DNA of 64,000 nucleotides from Alphaproteobacteria bacterium (GTDB lineage Bacteria > Pseudomonadota > Alphaproteobacteria > GCA-2731375). The notes under the pieces are model-generated. The model was not told the DNA's origin, did no database searches, and worked only from the letters and a program-made list of their open reading frames with translations. Position 1 is the first letter of the stretch. The number at the start of each line of letters is the position of its first letter. The position numbers were made by a program, and so were the translations under genes. This document shows positions 3,596 through 62,290 of the stretch, piece after piece. Where the stretch lies: NCBI GenBank assembly GCA_965232515.1, contig CBDDPY010000002.1:6112001-6176000 (forward strand), in the 5' to 3' direction.

Positions 3596-5023
3596 TCAGG
3601 CCAACGGCGGGCGGCGATCGAACCAGGGCTGCGCCTGCTCGATCTGGCTGGCCATGCGCAGCAGCAGCGCCTCGTTGCCGAAGTCGGCGCCAAGCTGCAC
3701 GCCGACCGGCAGGCCGTCGTCGGTCCAGTGCAGCGGTAGCGAGCAGGCCGGCTGGCCGGTGATGTTGAACAATGGCGTGAACGGCAGCCGCCGGAACAAC
3801 GCGTCGAAATAATCCTCGGGCGCGGCCATCATGTCGACGGTGCCCAGCGGCAGCGGCGGATTGGCGAGCGTTGGCGACAGCAACAAATCGTAGTTTGCGA
3901 AAAAGCCACCAATCCGCCGGCCCGTCGCGTGCAGCACCTGGATGGCACGCGCATAGTCCGCGGCCGAGAAACCGCGCGCCTGCTCGGCCAGGTACCAGGT
4001 GGCACGCTCGACATCGTCCTCGCGCGGTTCCCGGCCGAGCGCGGCACAGCGCGTGTCGATGACGTGCCGCATGTTGCCGCCGATAATGATCTGCACGGCA
4101 TCATTGATGGCCGCAATGTCGACATCGATGGCGGTGGGCTCGACATGGTGGCCCAGGTCCTCGCAGAGCTTCGCCGTCGCCTCCGCGCCTGCCACGCAGA
4201 CCGGATCGACGTCGTGGCCGCTGGGCGCGGCGGTGATCAGTCCGATCCGCAGCCGGCCCGGATCGGCGCCGACCTCGTCGCTGAACGGCCGCGCCGGCGG
4301 CGGCGCGCAATAGGGATCGCCGGGCGCAGGGCCGTGCGTCGCGTCGAGCAGGGCGGCGCTGTCGCGCACGCTGCGGGTAACCGCATGGCCGACACCCATA
4401 CCGCTCCAACCCTCGCCGACATCGGGGCCGGACGGGTTGCGCGCCCGCGTCGGCTTCAGGCCGAACAGGCCGCAGTTCGCGGCCGGGATGCGGATCGAGC
4501 CACCGCCGTCGGTGGCGTGCGCCGCCGGCAGCATGCCGGCCGCCACGGCCGCCGCGGCGCCGCCGCTGGAGCCGCCGGGGCTGTGTTCGGTGTTCCAGGG
4601 ATTGCGGGTGGCGCCGTGCAGCACCGGCTCGGTGAAGAAGTTGTAGCCGAACTCCGGCGAATTGGTCTTGCCCATGATCACCAGGCCGGCGGCGCGCAGG
4701 CGTTCGGTCAGCGTGCTGTCGTGGTCGGCGACGAAGTCGGCGAACAGGCGGCTGCCGTTGGTGGTCGGCGCGCCGGTGTAGAGGACATAGAGGTCCTTCA
4801 GCATGTAGGGCACGCCCGACAGCGGACCCGCCGGCAGGCCGGCGTCGATGCTGGCCCGCGCCGTGTCGTGCATCTTGTGGACAACAGCGTTCAGCGCCGG
4901 GTTGCGGGCGTCCACCCGCTCGATGGCCGCGTCCAGCACCTCGGTCGCGCCGACCTCGCCGCGGCGGATCAGATCGGCCAACCCAAGCGCATCGTAGTTT
5001 TCGTATTCCTGGAACCCGGTCAT
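3596..5023 (-). CDS. Amidase signature family enzyme (6-aminohexanoate-cyclic-dimer hydrolase-like)
   Basis: [35 protein letters not shown]; start at MTGFQEY. Confidence 0.92.
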
Positions 5024-56222: not shown

Positions 56223-56969
56223 CTAGATTACGGATTTGGCGATCAGAACGACGGAACTCGTCGCGGCGATGACGAGCATCAGATTGCGGGCCATCCTGTC
56301 AGAGATTAAGCCGCGGCATAGGCGTGCGAGCACATAGCCCGCGATCAGGCCCGGTATGAGTGACAGGCCGAGAAGAAACTCAAGCTTTCCGAACAGATTC
56401 TCCGCATAGAGCGACGCCAGCGACAGAACGCTGCCAATCACGAATATCAAGGCGATTGTCGCGTGCGCCCGGGCCGGCTCCGCCCGTTGATAGAGAACGG
56501 CGAGCGGCGGGCCGTGAATGCCGGAAAGAGTACCCATGAGCCCCGCGCAGAAGCCGCCCACGCCGGATGCGGTGCGGGACTGACGCGGTGCGAAACCGAA
56601 CTGCCCGAGGACGATCGCCGTCAGCACAATGCCACCGAAGGCCAGCCCGAAGGACGATGGCGAAAGCGCGCCGAGCAAAAGCGCGCCCGCGACCGTTCCG
56701 ACACAAAGTCCGGGCAAGAGCGTTGCCAAGCCGTTCTTGTCGATATGGCGCCGCGCCTTCGCGACCATGGCGAGGGACAAAAACAGCATCACGAACAACG
56801 ACGGTCCGGGTGCATAGGTCGGATCGATGAGCACCAGCAGCGGCACCGCGATCATGGCGAATCCGATGCCGGCCGATGCCTGCACGAAGCCCGCAACGAC
56901 GACGATGAGATTTGCCAGCAGAATTTCGAACATCGTGCCGGTCGGCATCGCGGCAAGCGATACGATCAT
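56223..56969 (-). CDS. TauE/SafE (TSUP) sulfite exporter family
   Basis: GFVQASAGIGF, GLMGTLSGIHGPP; about 8 TM helices; ATGA overlap with the upstream PLP enzyme. Confidence 0.88.
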   Translation of the reverse strand: MIVSLAAMPTGTMFEILLANLIVVVAGFVQASAGIGFAMIAVPLLVLIDPTYAPGPSLFVMLFLSLAMVAKARRHIDKNGLATLLPGLCVGTVAGALLLGALSPSSFGLAFGGIVLTAIVLGQFGFAPRQSRTASGVGGFCAGLMGTLSGIHGPPLAVLYQRAEPARAHATIALIFVIGSVLSLASLYAENLFGKLEFLLGLSLIPGLIAGYVLARLCRGLISDRMARNLMLVIAATSSVVLIAKSVI

Positions 56970-58003
56970 GAATGCGTTGATCCGGCCAACTGGTCGGCGT
57001 AACCGAACAGCGCCGGTTGGCCACCGGTATGCCAGAACAAGATTCGCCGGCCTGCAAGCCCGCTCGTCCGTGCCAGCTCGATCAGGCCGGCCATCGTCTT
57101 GCCGGTATAGACCGGGTCGAGAAACAGGCCCTCGCGCTGCGCCGTCCGTTCGATCGCATCCGTCGTGGCGTCGTTGAGCCTGCCGTATCCGGGCGCGAGC
57201 GTGCCGTCGAACATCCTGATGTCAGCCTCGCCGACCGCTACCTGCAGTCCGGTCAGATTGCCGAGATCGTCAGCACGTTGCGCAACACGCGCTGCTTGGG
57301 CCGTTGCGCCACGGCGCACGCAGATGCCGCGCACCGGGATATCCAGACCGAGCGCGCGCAGACCGTACAGCAAACCGGTGTGGGTGAGCGCGCTTCCCGA
57401 GGCGACGATGATCTCGTCCAGCGCCTCGATCGTCGCAAGTTGGGCGGCAAGCTCCTTGGCGGCCAGAACATAGCCCAACGCGCCCAACGGTGGACGGTCC
57501 GCCGCCAGCGGGATGACGTAGGGGCGCTGGCCACGCGACCTCAGCTCGCCGGCAAGCGCCGCCACGGCGGCGTCGGCGCCGGCCTCGTCCTCGCCCTCGG
57601 GATAGCTGTGCAGCACCGCGCCCAACAGCCGGTCGAGCAGCACGTTGCCATTACTTCGGTATACGTCGCTGACATCCGGGACGCGCTCCTCGAGCTGGAT
57701 GTGACAGGCCATGCCGAACCGACGCGCCATGGCCGCGGCCGTGCGGACGAAGTTCGACTGGACGGCGCTGGTGATCAGAATGGTATCGGCCTGTTCGGCC
57801 AGCGCCGCGCCGAGATAGAACTCGAGCTGGCGCACCTTGTTGCCGCCAAACGCCAGCCCGGTACAGTCGTCGCGCTTCACATACAAGTCGAGTCCCAGCT
57901 CGGCGCCGAGATTGGCCAGCGGTTCGAGCGGCGTGGGCGTATGGGCCGCCCGCGCGCGCGGAAACGGGCGCAACGCCCTGTCGATAAGGTCAAGTTCGGC
58001 CAT
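56966..58003 (-). CDS. D-cysteine desulfhydrase/ACC deaminase/CuyA-family PLP enzyme (paralog 1)
   Basis: PTPLE, KRDDCTGLAFGGNKVRQLE, QSN, LDPVYTGK, FWHTGG. Confidence 0.92.
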   Translation of the reverse strand: MAELDLIDRALRPFPRARAAHTPTPLEPLANLGAELGLDLYVKRDDCTGLAFGGNKVRQLEFYLGAALAEQADTILITSAVQSNFVRTAAAMARRFGMACHIQLEERVPDVSDVYRSNGNVLLDRLLGAVLHSYPEGEDEAGADAAVAALAGELRSRGQRPYVIPLAADRPPLGALGYVLAAKELAAQLATIEALDEIIVASGSALTHTGLLYGLRALGLDIPVRGICVRRGATAQAARVAQRADDLGNLTGLQVAVGEADIRMFDGTLAPGYGRLNDATTDAIERTAQREGLFLDPVYTGKTMAGLIELARTSGLAGRRILFWHTGGQPALFGYADQLAGSTHS

Positions 58004-58066
58004 GGCGAAAACTCCGTTGCGTCCGGGGCGCTTTCTGGTCGACGCAAACGTCGCTACCTTGCGGCC

Positions 58067-59092
58067 ATGAATCAAGAACGCATTGCCGAGCTCGAGCGCC
58101 GATTGGCGCGCCACCCGCGTGTAGGTCTGGCGCGGCTGCCGACGCCGCTCGAGCCATTAACGCGGCTGACGGAACACCTCGGCGGGCCGCGGCTGTGGGT
58201 GAAGCGCGAGGACGAGACCGGTCTCGGCTTCGGTGGCAACAAGCTGCGCAAGCTCGATTTCGTCCTGCGCGAGGCGATCGATGCCGGCGCCGACACGCTG
58301 GTGTCCGGCGGCGTGGTGCAGTCGAACAGCCAGCGGCAGGTCGCGGCGGCAGCGGCGAAGCTGGGGCTCGGCTGTCATCTCGCCGTCTATCACGGCCGGG
58401 TGGCGCCGCCGACCGCTACCTATGAGACGTCGGGGAACGCGCTGCTGAACCGGCTCTACGGCGCGGTGCTGCACGACATCCCCTGGACCGGCGACCGCAA
58501 CGGCGCGATCCGCGATCTGGCCGACCGGCTCTCGGCCGAGGGACGCCGTCCGTTCGTCGTGCCCTATGGCGTGTCGGATGGGCTCGGCGCGGTCGGCTAT
58601 GCGTCGACGATGGCCGAGATCGCCCGACAATGCGACGCATTGGGCTTTACACCGCACGCTGTGGTGCATTGCTCGGGTAGCGGCGGCACCCAGGCGGGTC
58701 TGGTGCTGGGCGCGTCGGTGGCCCTGCCGCAGGTCGACATCGTTGGCATCGACATTGACGCCGAGCCCGAACGCGTGCGCGACGATGTCTGCCGCTATGG
58801 CGCGGCGGGCGCTGATTTGCTCGATGTGGCGTTCGCGGCCGACCGCGTCGAGGTCGTCGCCGGCCATGCCGGTCCTGCCTACGGCGTGCCGCACGCGGCG
58901 ACCGCCGACGCCATCAGGCTCGCCGGACGGCTCGAAGCGCTGGCGCTCGATCCGGTCTATTCGGGCAAGGGTTTGGCGGGTTTGATCGCGCTGATCGGCG
59001 AGGGCCGTTGGACGCCGGACGACGACGTCGTCTTCATCCATACCGGCGGCGCGCCGTCGCTGTTCGCCTACGAGGCGGCGCTGGCGCTGTGA
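58067..59092 (+). CDS. D-cysteine desulfhydrase/ACC deaminase/CuyA-family PLP enzyme (paralog 2)
   Basis: PTPLE, KREDETGLGFGGNKLRKL, QSN, SGSGGTQAG, LDPVYSGK, FIHTGG. Confidence 0.92.
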   Translation: MNQERIAELERRLARHPRVGLARLPTPLEPLTRLTEHLGGPRLWVKREDETGLGFGGNKLRKLDFVLREAIDAGADTLVSGGVVQSNSQRQVAAAAAKLGLGCHLAVYHGRVAPPTATYETSGNALLNRLYGAVLHDIPWTGDRNGAIRDLADRLSAEGRRPFVVPYGVSDGLGAVGYASTMAEIARQCDALGFTPHAVVHCSGSGGTQAGLVLGASVALPQVDIVGIDIDAEPERVRDDVCRYGAAGADLLDVAFAADRVEVVAGHAGPAYGVPHAATADAIRLAGRLEALALDPVYSGKGLAGLIALIGEGRWTPDDDVVFIHTGGAPSLFAYEAALAL

Positions 59093-59658
59093 GCCCGACT
59101 TCGCAACCCAGGTTCGAGGCGGTCGACCCCGACCGCTGGGACGACCTCGCGCGCCTGTTCGAGTCGCGTGGCAGCCCGCATTATTGCTGGTGCATGGCCT
59201 GGCGAGAGAAGCCGCCCGGATTCAAGCAAGCCGACGCCAAGGACCGGAAGGCCATGCTGAAGGCGGCCATGTGCCAGCGCGTCGCCGACGGCGTGCCGGT
59301 CGGCATCCTTGGCTATCGCGGCGACGAGCCGATCGCCTGGTGCTCGATTGCGCCGCGCGCGACCTATCGGTCGCTGGGCGGACCTGCCGAACCGGGAGCC
59401 GAGGACGCGGTCTGGTCGGTCGCCTGTTTCTTCGTCAAGCGCGCCTATCGCGGCGAGGGCATGATGCACCGGTTGCTGGAAGCCGCCACTGCCCACGCCC
59501 GCCGGCAAGGCGCCCGGATCGTCGAGGCCTATCCGGTCGATCGGGATTCGCCGAGCTACCGGTACATGGGCGTCGTCGATATCTTCCAACGCGCTGGCTT
59601 CGAGCGTGTCGGCACAGCCGGCAGCCGGCGCCACGTCGTGCGCCTTGCGCTCGACTAA
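59089..59658 (+). CDS. GNAT acetyltransferase with CWC motif
   Basis: CWCMAWR, GILGY....PIAWCSIAPR, WSVACFFV, VEAYPVD; GTGA overlap. Confidence 0.88.
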   Translation: MSPTSQPRFEAVDPDRWDDLARLFESRGSPHYCWCMAWREKPPGFKQADAKDRKAMLKAAMCQRVADGVPVGILGYRGDEPIAWCSIAPRATYRSLGGPAEPGAEDAVWSVACFFVKRAYRGEGMMHRLLEAATAHARRQGARIVEAYPVDRDSPSYRYMGVVDIFQRAGFERVGTAGSRRHVVRLALD

Positions 59659-59670
59659 CCCGCCACGGGC

Positions 59671-61386
59671 CTATCCTGACGGCCAGCGGACGCGGCGACT
59701 GGTGGGGAAGCCGTGCATGCCATTGCTGGCGAAGGCGTAGGCGTTCGAGCGCAGCGGATCGCCGCTGACGACCAGCAGGATGTCGGTCGCGCGTTCGACG
59801 ATGGGCACCAGACGGGCGGGGTCATCGTTCTCCGCGAAGATTGGGGCTGCCTTGCCGGCCGCGACCAGATCGTTGAGCGTCGGCCGGCCGGGCACCAGGT
59901 TCGACCAAGGGCCGATATAGGTCTCGAGCTTCTCGGCCGGCAGGCGGGCGTGCCGGAACAGGCCGTCGCGCACATCGGCCTTGGTCAGGCCGGCGCGGGT
60001 CAGCGTCCGCGCCACCATCGGGCTCAACACCAACAGCGGGCGGTAGGTGCCGGGCGCGAAGCCGGCGGTGAAGACGAACTCCCAGCTGGTCTGCCGCACC
60101 AGGCCGTCGGCGAGGTAGGCCAGGATTTGCTCGGGATCCTTGCCGTAGATCGACCCGACCGTGCCGCCGGCGGTGAAGCGGCCGATGGTGACGACGCTGT
60201 CGTCGGGCGCGAAGCCGCGGTCGGTCCCGAAGGTCGGCCAGCCGAGCGCGGCCGCCGCCGGCTCGTGCTCGGCCAGCACGACCCGGAAGGTATGGCCGAA
60301 GGTGCTCTTGTCGGCCGCGCCCGGCAGGAAGCCGGCGACGTTGCGTTGGAACAGACGCAGAAACCGGCCGACGCTGGTGTTGGCGCGATAACCGTCCCGC
60401 AGCGCGCCGTTCTCGCAATTGAAGCCGAGCCGGCCAATGGCGGGGCCGCTCAATATGACCAACGCGTCGCCGCCCGTGGTGTCGCCGCTGTGCTCGATGC
60501 CGTAGCCGGGATCGGCCAGCACCTCGGCGATGGCGACCAGCACCGGCATGTATTCGGGCCGGCAGTTCGCCATGACGCCGTTGACGGCGACATTCATGAC
60601 GGTGGCGGCGGCGCCCGAGGGCTGCAGCACGCCGATTACGCGGTCGGGCGCGTCGTCAGTCTGCGCGAGGAACGCGGCCACGCGGTTCCGCGTGGGCGGC
60701 ACGATGGGCAGGCCGTCGCTCCACTGCTTTTCCTCGAAGATCCGGTTGATCTCGTCGAACGCGCCGCGCGCGACGATGCCGTCGCTCGTGGTCGGCGCCG
60801 GTTCGTTTCGGGGTGTTGGCGTTTCCGTCAGGCAGCGGACCACATCGGCGACGGTGACGGCCTCAACATTGCGTGTGAGTTCGTCGTCACCCTGGCCGTC
60901 GACATGGCCGACAAGGCGGGCGACCGGCAGATCGGCGATGCCGAGGCCGCCGCAGATCGCGCCGGCCTGGCCGATGAAACCGTCGCAGACCAGGGACGCC
61001 GTGGGAATGCCGGCCTTTTCGACAACCGCGCTTGCCCGCATCACGGCGGGCGTGCACGCGCCTCAGCAGCCGACGCCGGAAACGACCGCGTCTATGCCAT
61101 GTTCGCGCAGGCGGTCGGGCAGGGCCGCCAGCACCGCGTGCTCGTCGCCGCCGAAGGTCGACCCGAAGGCCTCGTGGCCGACGAAGCGCACATCCTTGGC
61201 CGAGGCTGCAAGGGCGTCGGCGATGACCGGGAAGATCTCGTCGCCGCGGAACATATCGTCCCAGACAAAGGCGATGGTCTTGCCGTCGAGCGAAGATGGT
61301 CGCGGCGCCGGCGGTACGGCCGGTACGGCCAGCGCGCCGCCCGGCCACAGGGCGGCGAATTCTTCAGACGATGTCGGATCGCTCAT
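59671..61386 (-). CDS. UGSC-family-like selenoprotein, 571 aa, Sec108 encoded by TGA at 61063-61065
   Basis: Tracked ORFs 61063-61416 and 59671-61044 share a frame and are separated only by TGA plus six sense codons: SGVGC-U-GACTPAVMRASAVVEKAGIPT; AAGGAG RBS before ATG 61386; WSDGLPIVPPT domain; true stop is TAG. Confidence 0.88.
61027..61065 (-). promoter_or_regulatory. Candidate bacterial SECIS hairpin of the UGSC-type gene
   Basis: After UGA: GCCCGC(+12..+17)-CGUGAU-GCGGGC(+24..+29); lower stem CGCGU/GCGCG. Confidence 0.7.
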
Positions 61387-61412
61387 TGGCGTCTCCTTGG
61401 GCTTGGCGACAG

Positions 61413-62198
61413 TCACGCCGCGCGGCTGCCGAGCAGGCCGCCGTCGGTCAGCGGCTCGATCGGCCCTAGGTCCCGGTGGTGCTTATGGTCGGGGCGGGCG
61501 GTCTTGCGGTAGGCGTTCGAGACCGGATTGACGATCAGCGAGAAGATCGCCCGGTCCCAGGGCGACATGTTCACGGGCGATCCGTGCAGCAGCGTGTCGA
61601 CGAAGATCAGCGCCGTGCCCTTCTTGCCGGTCGCGGCGACGATACCGTGCGTGTCAGCAAGGTCTCGGACCAGCGGCTCGTCGACGACCCAGAGCGGATA
61701 GCTGGTCGTTTCCTCATCGAGCCTGGTTTCGTGGCTGCCGTAGGCGTGCGAGCCGGGGATGAAGTAGAGCGGTCCGTTCAGGTCGGTGACGTCGTCGAGA
61801 AACACATGCAGGTTGAGCGCCAGGGGTTGCGGAACGCCGTCCTCGGCGTGGTGGGTGGCGAAATCGTAGTGCCACTGCCAGACCTCGCCGGAAAAGGCCG
61901 CCTTGACGTTGACCTTGACCTGCTGAACGTAGAGCGGCTCGGGGCGGATCTGCCGGGCCGGTTCGATCAGGCGCGGGTCGCGGACCAGCCTGGCATAGAG
62001 ATCGTCCCGCAGATGCAGGCCCATGGCCGTGCGCACGGCGCCAGACGCCCGCTCGACGATGTTGCCGGGATGACCGTCGGCGAACAGCGCCGGCAGCCGC
62101 GCCGCGAGCGCGTCGGCCTCGGTCTCGGAAAACAGGTCGGGCAGGATCAGAAAGCCCTGCCGTTCCAGGCGCTGCAGTTCCGTGGCCGAGAGTTTCAT
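61413..62198 (-). CDS. PhyH-family Fe/2OG dioxygenase (ectoine/proline hydroxylase-like)
   Basis: KVNVKAAFSGEVWQWHYDF, NGPLYFIPGSH, LLHGSP.N.SPWDR. Confidence 0.9.
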   Translation of the reverse strand: MKLSATELQRLERQGFLILPDLFSETEADALAARLPALFADGHPGNIVERASGAVRTAMGLHLRDDLYARLVRDPRLIEPARQIRPEPLYVQQVKVNVKAAFSGEVWQWHYDFATHHAEDGVPQPLALNLHVFLDDVTDLNGPLYFIPGSHAYGSHETRLDEETTSYPLWVVDEPLVRDLADTHGIVAATGKKGTALIFVDTLLHGSPVNMSPWDRAIFSLIVNPVSNAYRKTARPDHKHHRDLGPIEPLTDGGLLGSRAA

Positions 62199-62290
62199 GG
62201 GGCTGACCCTTGCCTTGTCGATCAGGTGCGACGGACTTGATTTTCCCGACATGTCTTGCGCAAATCAAATCATCGCTGCTATTCGCTGGG

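Follow-up and report, generated by a model that had tools for sequence, protein, structure and literature searches.

The analysed window is a stretch of 64,000 nucleotides (nt) from an alphaproteobacterial genome (contig CBDDPY010000002.1), and the subject here is a gene near its end, on the minus strand, which standard open reading frame (ORF) calling divides in two. The best explanation is a single gene for a 571-residue selenoprotein, composed of a UGSC domain and a large unnamed domain with a near-invariant cysteine (C275). The in-frame UGA at codon 108 is probably decoded as selenocysteine (Sec) by the genome's own SelA/SelB/SelD/tRNA-Sec machinery, and a hairpin that appears to be kept by synonymous codon choice is a putative aid to this decoding. 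A probability of roughly 0.8 is given to this explanation as a whole. The UGSC family and its UGSC/Unknown_1 fusion were published in 2007-2008, so the gene adds one more representative, mis-split by gene callers, to a known selenoprotein family and does not define a new class. No new kind of recoding or new selenoprotein class is revealed. All coordinates are in window numbering, and residue numbers are those of the 571-residue read-through protein. The features of the gene are as follows.

59671..61386, minus: complete selenoprotein gene, 571 codons and a TAG stop, with one in-frame TGA (Sec108)
61393..61398, minus: Shine-Dalgarno-like AAGGAG, 6-nt spacer to the ATG
61063..61065, minus: TGA codon 108, probably read as selenocysteine, motif C107-U108-G-A-C111
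61025..61061, minus: putative hairpin like a selenocysteine insertion sequence (SECIS), nt +5 to +41 from the U of UGA, from minimum-free-energy folds
60826..61350, minus: UGSC domain (residues 13-187), Pfam PF24696
59674..60801, minus: C-terminal domain (C-domain, residues 196-571), large unnamed family, ~375 amino acids (aa)
60562..60564, minus: Cys275 codon, the only near-invariant cysteine of the C-domain

Probable selenocysteine at codon 108

The gene starts with the ATG at 61386-61384 and has 107 sense codons before the TGA at 61065-61063. Past the TGA, the frame runs unbroken to the TAG at 59673-59671. Translated with TGA as U, it gives 571 residues with U108 placed within G-V-G-C-U-G-A-C-T-P-A-V-M-R-A-S-A-V-V-E-K-A-G-I-P-T. 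Standard calling breaks this one frame into two ORFs. The first, 61063..61416, has 117 aa when started at an upstream GTG and 107 aa when started at the ATG, and the second, 59671..61044, has 457 aa with a GTG start. The first-pass annotation of this DNA had quoted the minus-strand codons TCC GGC GTC GGC TGC TGA GGC at the site, and they are present exactly as quoted. Its joining of a 107-aa and a 457-aa ORF of the same frame into a 571-aa read-through product ending in TAG was reproduced as well. The good ribosome-binding site that it saw for the 107-aa ORF is the AAGGAG listed above. It had found none obvious for the downstream ORF, and inspection of the sequence likewise revealed no Shine-Dalgarno-like word at usable distance before the internal GTG/ATG.

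A word-indexed protein search scored 8000 candidates, of which 2708 reached E ≤0.001. Among the best 120 matches, 42 extend over the full length (538-605 aa, 93-99% query coverage) and span both halves, as the first-pass annotation had expected of homologues. At column 108 they carry Cys in 41 cases and Tyr in one. Cys homologues with 563-605 aa reach a coverage of 97-99%. Similarly, alignment A1 of full-length homologues is continuous across the site, with Cys in 14/15 and Tyr in 1/15. The remaining 78 matches are 390-468 aa long and 68 of them begin with M(L)RASA, directly after the Sec site. Judged by these start points, the shorter entries are the expected truncated calls of Sec forms. With as many as 78 of the 120 best matches cut short at the Sec codon, the annotation here and in relatives should join the two ORFs, and the gene provides a clean example of a selenoprotein split by gene callers.

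Within the same bacterial family, a genomic match was found in all of the 33 genomes. The 32 best family matches (52-100% identity) contain exactly one TGA each and no other stop, and in 28/28 fetched family loci this TGA lies within G-x-G-C-*-G-[A/S/P]-C. An even class-wide sample yielded an orthologue at E ≤1e-120 in 8/301 genomes, seven with TGA and one with Cys. A scan of one genome per GTDB species gave 36 loci; with the window and locus L053, 37 orthologous loci covering the Sec site were compared. Column 108 is TGA in 23 of these, TGC/TGT in 13 and TAC in one, and the TGA is kept across 8 genera of the bacterial family and beyond. The TAC belongs to orthologue L096 (JAWKVM010000042.1, G-V-G-C-Y-G-A-C), and Tyr is found in protein P0034 also; this could reflect a sequencing variant or a protein without redox activity.

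The first-pass annotation had described three adjacent redox residues (C107, U108 and C111). The U-x-x-C part of this is conserved, but C107 is variable. It is G or A in 5/23 Sec forms (L080, L081, L083, L101 and L107) and is replaced by A in 5/42 full-length database homologues. The conserved redox core is therefore U-x-x-C and not C-U-x-x-C, which weakens the idea of a three-residue site.

The predicted hairpin has an upper stem of 6 bp (GCCCGC/GCGGGC) with a 6-nt loop, CGUGAU, at nt +15 to +32, and this G/U-containing loop lies 17 nt after the UGA. Upper stem and loop recur in the minimum-free-energy fold of 26/27 distinct family sequences. The decisive comparison was of the synonymous codons of the shared peptide C-T-P-A-V-M/L-R-A between 23 Sec and 14 non-TGA forms. 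By means of synonymous codons, the upper stem is present in 19/23 Sec forms vs 0/14 non-TGA forms. Sec forms use CCC for Pro (19/23), GCC for Ala (22/23), GTG for Val (23/23) and CGG for Arg (19/23), whereas non-TGA forms favor CCG for Pro (9/14), GCG for Ala (8/14) and CGC for Arg (12/14), with mixed Val codons. In the other four Sec forms, a different hairpin of 7 bp, with CGUGC as its loop, lies a few nt downstream of this position.

The window's genome contains selD (290 bits), selB (429), selA (576) and tRNA-Sec (71.6), all over the curated profile cut-offs. The first-pass annotation had pointed to selA, selB, selC and selD as the genes to look for, and with selA, selB, selD and the tRNA-Sec this machinery is in place. 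It is clustered at C2:5.873-5.885 Mb, ~230-240 kb from the window. The surrounding selenium gene island (C2:5868001-5887000, locus L112) carries on one strand selA, selB, a response regulator, a histidine kinase, tRNA-Sec, a C-domain paralogue, a stand-alone UGSC selenoprotein and an oxidoreductase/SelD fusion. The fusion is composed of a pyridine-nucleotide-disulfide-oxidoreductase (TIGR03169) and selD. Two short GRDB/PrdB-like ORFs flank the island, and both end where a Sec codon would be.

A true stop at codon 108, giving separate 107-aa and 457-aa proteins with the latter started from the internal GTG/ATG, is highly improbable. Standard calling does give exactly two ORFs, and the 78 shorter matches are deposited as proteins of 390-468 aa. 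However, full-length Cys forms exist, the PF24696 domain would be split mid-domain, the internal start has no ribosome-binding site, the downstream synonymous codons are constrained in TGA forms only and sel genes are present in the genome. An assembly error or a recent nonsense mutation forming a pseudogene, for which nothing speaks beyond the stop codon itself, is excluded for practical purposes, since the TGA is kept across sequencing runs, family loci and genera. Contigs of run X1, which may represent the source sample, and of run X3 from a different sample have zero differences across the TGA site. An 846-nt contig of run X4, which comes from an RNA library with another organism label and represents a ~98%-identical relative, spans 60275-61120 with 18 differences, none of them at 61063-61065. 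Thus the assembly-error check named in the first-pass annotation leaves the TGA in place in contigs of three sequencing runs.

The UGSC domain and the C-terminal domain

Residues 13-187 match PF24696 with 88.2 bits (cut-off 25, E 9e-25) over profile positions 3-171 of 172. This bears out the first-pass annotation, which had recognized the UGSC family from the U-x-x-C followed by E-x-x-G-I-P. Like the known UGSC family (PF24696; NF041046), the protein has the U-x-x-C position, the following E-x-x-G-I-P, the alternation of Sec and Cys and a downstream SECIS hairpin. It differs in having C-U-G-A-C instead of U-G-S-C and in its score with the ~147-position NCBIfam equivalog model NF041046, which is 40.2 bits over residues 92-177 only, below the cut-off of 125. 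By sequence, it is a divergent, fused UGSC-domain protein and not an equivalog of the small stand-alone UGSC protein. Its length of 571 aa is due to the ~375-aa domain fused C-terminally to UGSC. The motif is U-G-A-C here, U-G-A-C or U-G-P-C in the orthologues and U-G-S-C in a sister paralogue, with the U-x-x-C spacing kept in all.

In 2007, UGSC-containing proteins appeared in a published list of selenoproteins, with no function assigned (PMC1976440). By 2008 the GOS metagenomes had yielded 255 Sec and 21 Cys sequences of UGSC, one of the most abundant families there (PMC2398784). The same work by Zhang and Gladyshev (PLoS Genet 2008; PMC2398784) reported a 'UGSC/Unknown_1' fusion and a separate Unknown_1 protein. 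Going by the text and a figure legend of that paper, Unknown_1 is likely the present C-domain. The entries for the UGSC family in later reviews come without a function (PMC9312934, PMC13188914), and full-text searches of the literature found no functional study of the family. NCBI names long Cys homologues (P0022, P0034, P0058) 'UGSC family (seleno)protein'. The 'hidden selenoprotein' of the first-pass annotation is thus a real gene that was mis-split, but both the family and the fusion had been described before. What is added here is quantitative support for Sec decoding, a near-obligate C-domain/UGSC pairing, the thioredoxin-reductase-like (TrxR-like) partner of the sister paralogue and confident models.

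A full-length AlphaFold2 model built from 72 sequences has a mean predicted local distance difference test score (pLDDT) of 94.9 and a predicted template modelling score (pTM) of 0.94. The modelled UGSC domain is a Rossmann/flavodoxin-like alpha/beta sandwich with a parallel beta-alpha-beta arrangement, whereas a thioredoxin (Trx)-like fold was suggested for UGSC in 2008 (PMC2398784). In the model, the turn that links strand 100-106 to helix 111-124 contains U108, and C111 belongs to the first turn of the helix. VIA-align of residues 30-192 gave Z 9-11 to many unrelated Rossmann-like chains, with short-chain dehydrogenases/reductases, PurE and periplasmic-binding-like chains in the top rows, and no thioredoxin-fold chain among the best 50 rows. 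The modelled arrangement is thus a common one and offers no clue to function. Full-length Foldseek gave two best matches with E ~8e-4 and template modelling (TM) scores ≤0.2.

The C-domain has no match in Pfam or NCBIfam, in agreement with the first-pass annotation, which had called it a WSDGLPIVPPT domain of unknown function. It contains the conserved motifs W-S-D-G-L-P-I-V-P-P-T (222-232) and N-G-V-M-A-x-C275-R-P-E-Y. Near-invariant residues include W222, D224-G-L-P227, P230-P-T232, N269, C275, P277, N336, R341, N349, G364, E373 and W383. C275 is at least 90% conserved in alignments of 72 and 104 sequences and is a candidate redox or catalytic partner of U108/C111. The family is large. Clustering at 50% identity leaves 4074 representatives with E ≤0.001 (549 with E ≤1e-30), and stand-alone proteins of ~350 aa are among its members. 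In the ESM Atlas it is represented by unnamed clusters only (353-371 aa), most commonly from the phylum Actinomycetota.

A separate model of the C-domain has a pLDDT of 92.3. Foldseek against the PDB gave no match at E ≤0.001; the best match, a class I fumarate hydratase, was rejected (E 1.9e-3, TM 0.23, root-mean-square deviation 18). In a wide VIA-align search the best Z was 5.9 and none reached 8. Likeness to PurM/ThiL N-domains, capsid/encapsulin and IspF-type sandwiches is limited to a subdomain of ~95 residues (model residues 210-363). Sequence searches of the PDB with profiles A3 and A4 gave nothing below E 0.15. A convincing solved relative of the modelled C-domain was thus not found by structure and profile searches of the PDB, and a new fold is not claimed.

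Pairing of the two domains and possible function

The C-domain almost always comes with a UGSC module, be it within one protein or from a neighbouring gene. The window's genome has exactly three UGSC matches, with one TGA each, and exactly three C-domain matches, which form three pairs. The first is the fusion in the window. The second, at 4.68 Mb, is a 485-aa protein (a CPTC-containing N-terminus and a C-domain) followed by a stand-alone S-D-U-G-S-C protein. The third, at 5.876 Mb, consists of a C-domain gene with a stand-alone UGSC gene after it, between tRNA-Sec and the oxidoreductase-SelD fusion. In the bacterial family, 97 C-domain-only matches are listed, with a UGSC match ≤1.5 kb downstream on the same strand in 65 and upstream in 15. 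The other 17 have no partner among the 150 UGSC matches listed. These counts apply to the matches listed; 90 further C-domain and 26 further UGSC matches stand outside them. Representatives with a C-domain and at least 340 aa number 104 among the best 150, and 59 of them contain PF24696. One of the 104 has instead a ferredoxin-thioredoxin-reductase beta (catalytic) domain, FeThRed_B. The C-domain may therefore be served, as a client, by a thiol/selenol redox module dedicated to it.

A candidate reductant is suggested by the sister paralogue, which is 53-55% identical and carries G-M-G-C-U-G-S-C. In its conserved array of three genes, the Sec fusion is followed by a C-domain-only paralogue and then by a gene for a TrxR-like flavoprotein. 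A TrxR-like match was found at 19/22 of the loci L028-L049, where the locus edge limits it to the first ~80-90 residues, and is complete in the longer loci L064-L067. The best NCBIfam match of this protein is TIGR01292, with 224.8 bits below the cut-off of 343. Genomes of the family (G003-G023 and others) have 5-8 PF24696 matches each, and nearly all of the 150 listed matches have one TGA. Many of these genomes possess a selD gene with an in-frame TGA (Sec-SelD) as well as a second, TGA-free selD that is part of an oxidoreductase-SelD fusion.

On this basis, the UGSC module may be the dedicated selenol/thiol redox arm of a reductase, a proposal with about even odds. U108 would attack a substrate bound by the C-domain, or would reduce an intermediate or disulfide linked to C275. 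This would leave a U108-C111 selenenylsulfide, with C111 as the resolving residue, to be re-reduced by a thioredoxin-reductase-type flavoprotein or a thioredoxin system. The protein would then be a self-contained reductase with a logic comparable to that of selenoprotein B of the glycine/D-proline reductases. Selenoprotein B (GrdB/GrdF/GrdH, PrdB; PF07355, TIGR01918) similarly has a U-x-x-C pair on an alpha/beta module, with the substrate held by a partner polypeptide, and the reducing power of these reductases ultimately comes from a thioredoxin-type system. Fusions such as MsrA/B-Trx, peroxiredoxin-glutaredoxin (Prx-Grx) and oxidoreductase-SelD follow the same 'Rosetta-stone' logic of a client enzyme joined to its dedicated reductant. 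Unlike in those fusions, the client family here is uncharacterised, and the C-domain occurs with alternative redox partners (UGSC, the CPTC N-terminus and FeThRed_B).

The wider proposal, that the C-domain is the catalytic subunit of an unrecognised modular class of selenol-dependent reductases, with the UGSC module fused or encoded next door and recharged by a TrxR-like protein, is tentative and rather doubtful. If true, the 5-8 paralogous sets per genome in this marine/host-associated alphaproteobacterial family would act on different small molecules. The class would be an aerobic-lineage counterpart of the glycine/proline reductase principle on a fold without a solved relative. The near-obligate pairing, the TrxR-like operon partner and the confident model together provide a concrete, testable hypothesis for the UGSC family.

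Several results weigh against the explanation as a whole, in addition to the sub-threshold NF041046 score given above. The Sec-vs-Cys codon contrast has a nominal Fisher P of 5e-7, which overstates independence because the Sec and Cys groups are also phylogenetically distinct. The single-sequence fold of the SECIS region was as stable as its shuffles (z 0.08), a value that is uninformative as the DNA is GC-rich. Covariation over 28 sequences in one consensus structure was at the level of shuffled alignments (81.7% paired vs 81.6%, with 262/500 shuffles as high). The register of the lower stem differs between the two paralogue groups, and for this reason the codon contrast was relied on instead. 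The contigs of X4 do not prove transcription, and the raw RNA run X20 gave 0 reads on the gene, which is no test of its expression. No TrxR-like gene was found in the window or in loci L058-L063, the orthologue group of the window. Structural and sequence relatives gave no chemistry for the C-domain. A tblastn search of 13 window proteins against 10 enlarged loci revealed no conserved neighbourhood, with the PhyH, PALP/CuyA-like and TauE proteins found in 0/10.

The UGSC module alone could be catalytic, for example as a peroxidase or disulfide reductase, with the C-domain as a scaffold or in a substrate-recruiting or regulatory role. UGSC selenoproteins commonly stand alone, with open frames of 170-280 aa in most of the 150 matches listed, and UGSC has been grouped with thiol oxidoreductase-like families of unknown function (PMC13188914, PMC2398784). 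The lack of C-domain chemistry from structure searches fits this as well. It is nevertheless unlikely, as stand-alone UGSC genes mostly lie beside a C-domain gene (80/97 listed C-domain-only matches have such a partner). With its ~375 aa and a high conservation that includes invariant polar residues and a near-invariant Cys, the C-domain has a pattern more typical of an enzyme, and elsewhere it is joined to the CPTC N-terminus or FeThRed_B, as expected of a redox client.

A second alternative takes the fusion as a selenoprotein A/B-type stand-in of a glycine/sarcosine/betaine-reductase-like system, which passes its intermediate to a GrdC/GrdD-type protein C. This idea arises from locus L061 (G019:C10:159441-177138), where a 62%-identical orthologue lies between amidase and GrdC genes (GrdC: NF040746, 529.8 bits, over the cut-off of 450), with GrdE/GrdG-like and GrdB/GrdF-family genes 2-5 kb away. 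The first-pass annotation had also seen a resemblance of the Sec region to GrdB/PrdB. Only a faint local likeness of the Sec segment remains of this (PrdB E 0.02, 14.3 bits with cut-off 300; GrdH E 0.16, 10.8 bits with cut-off 775), and no family-level match to PF07355, TIGR01918 or TIGR04483 was found, PF07355 giving none at E ≤1. Such a system is very unlikely here. The Grd context was found in only 1/10 enlarged loci and is absent from the window, and the window's genome has only two short PF07355 matches, which lie 230-240 kb away in the sel region. The C-domain is unrelated to GrdE/PrdA (profile-profile hhalign probability 5.6% with the GrdE-like protein). In comparison with the selenoprotein B reductases, there is also no sign of a pyruvoyl proprotein, and the hosts are aerobic-type Alphaproteobacteria in place of Stickland fermenters. 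A comparison of A3 with the GrdB-family ORF gave 0.2%, which says little since this ORF ends before its own Sec segment. In L061, which belongs to an alphaproteobacterial metagenome-assembled genome (MAG), the GrdB/GrdF-family ORF stops where Sec is expected.

A role of the C-domain/UGSC pair in selenium trafficking, supplying reduced selenium to selenophosphate synthetase, is distinctly improbable. One split pair does lie directly between tRNA-Sec and the oxidoreductase/SelD fusion, with selB and selA 4-7 kb away, and a UGSC-selD adjacency is found in genome G024 also. However, among the 31 genomes with selD the adjacency is confined to two genomes of genus g1, so it is rejected as a general rule. 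The 5-8 UGSC genes per genome in varied contexts fit diverse substrates better than one housekeeping role, and selenoprotein genes often lie near sel genes in any case.

Gene neighbourhood and occurrence

Three genes adjoin the selenoprotein gene in the window.

61413..62252, minus: PhyH-family Fe(II)/2-oxoglutarate dioxygenase gene, Pfam PF05721, 107 bits
62210..63196, plus: LysR/GcvA-type regulator, divergent, with Pfam/NCBIfam match
59008..59658, plus: GNAT acetyltransferase gene, convergent, Pfam PF00583, E 1.2e-7

The stop of the PhyH gene is 26 nt before the selenoprotein ATG in the same direction, so the two are probably co-transcribed. The best NCBIfam match of the PhyH protein is ectoine hydroxylase, with 158 bits below the cut-off of 336.5. 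The convergent GNAT gene ends 13 nt from the selenoprotein stop, which makes the selenoprotein gene the last of its transcription unit. With a PhyH dioxygenase and a LysR regulator as its context, the gene may serve in the breakdown of a small compound of nitrogenous or sulfonated type. The minus-strand ORFs 59068..59634 and 58157..59041 have no family match, and the former is probably spurious because of the GNAT gene on the plus strand. A promoter/terminator scan found no promoter-like site and 2 terminator-like sites, a yield not above that of shuffled sequences.

Neighbours of the orthologues vary and include an ABC transporter, amidase and GrdC, aldehyde dehydrogenase, TRAP DctP and IMPDH/RsmB. 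An amidase homologue is present in the window at 3608-5002 (minus), far from the selenoprotein gene, and is 27% identical to the amidase of L061 (tblastn E 4.8e-26).

At 56223-58114 (minus) of the window, a gene for a CuyA-like pyridoxal-phosphate enzyme is directly followed by a TauE/SafE sulfite-exporter gene. The enzyme scores 333 bits with the D-cysteate sulfo-lyase model, below the cut-off of 450, and the two genes look like a sulfonate-desulfonation pair. The convergent GNAT gene and a 294-aa ORF separate this pair from the selenoprotein gene.

Small shares of the gene's words were found in coral, marine and marine-sediment metagenome runs (X15-X18, X9-X14, X20-X24). Runs with the species label of the best DNA match include poly-A RNA libraries. 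The relatives bearing orthologues are largely sponge- or marine-derived Rhodospirillaceae MAGs, which hints at a host-associated marine bacterium.

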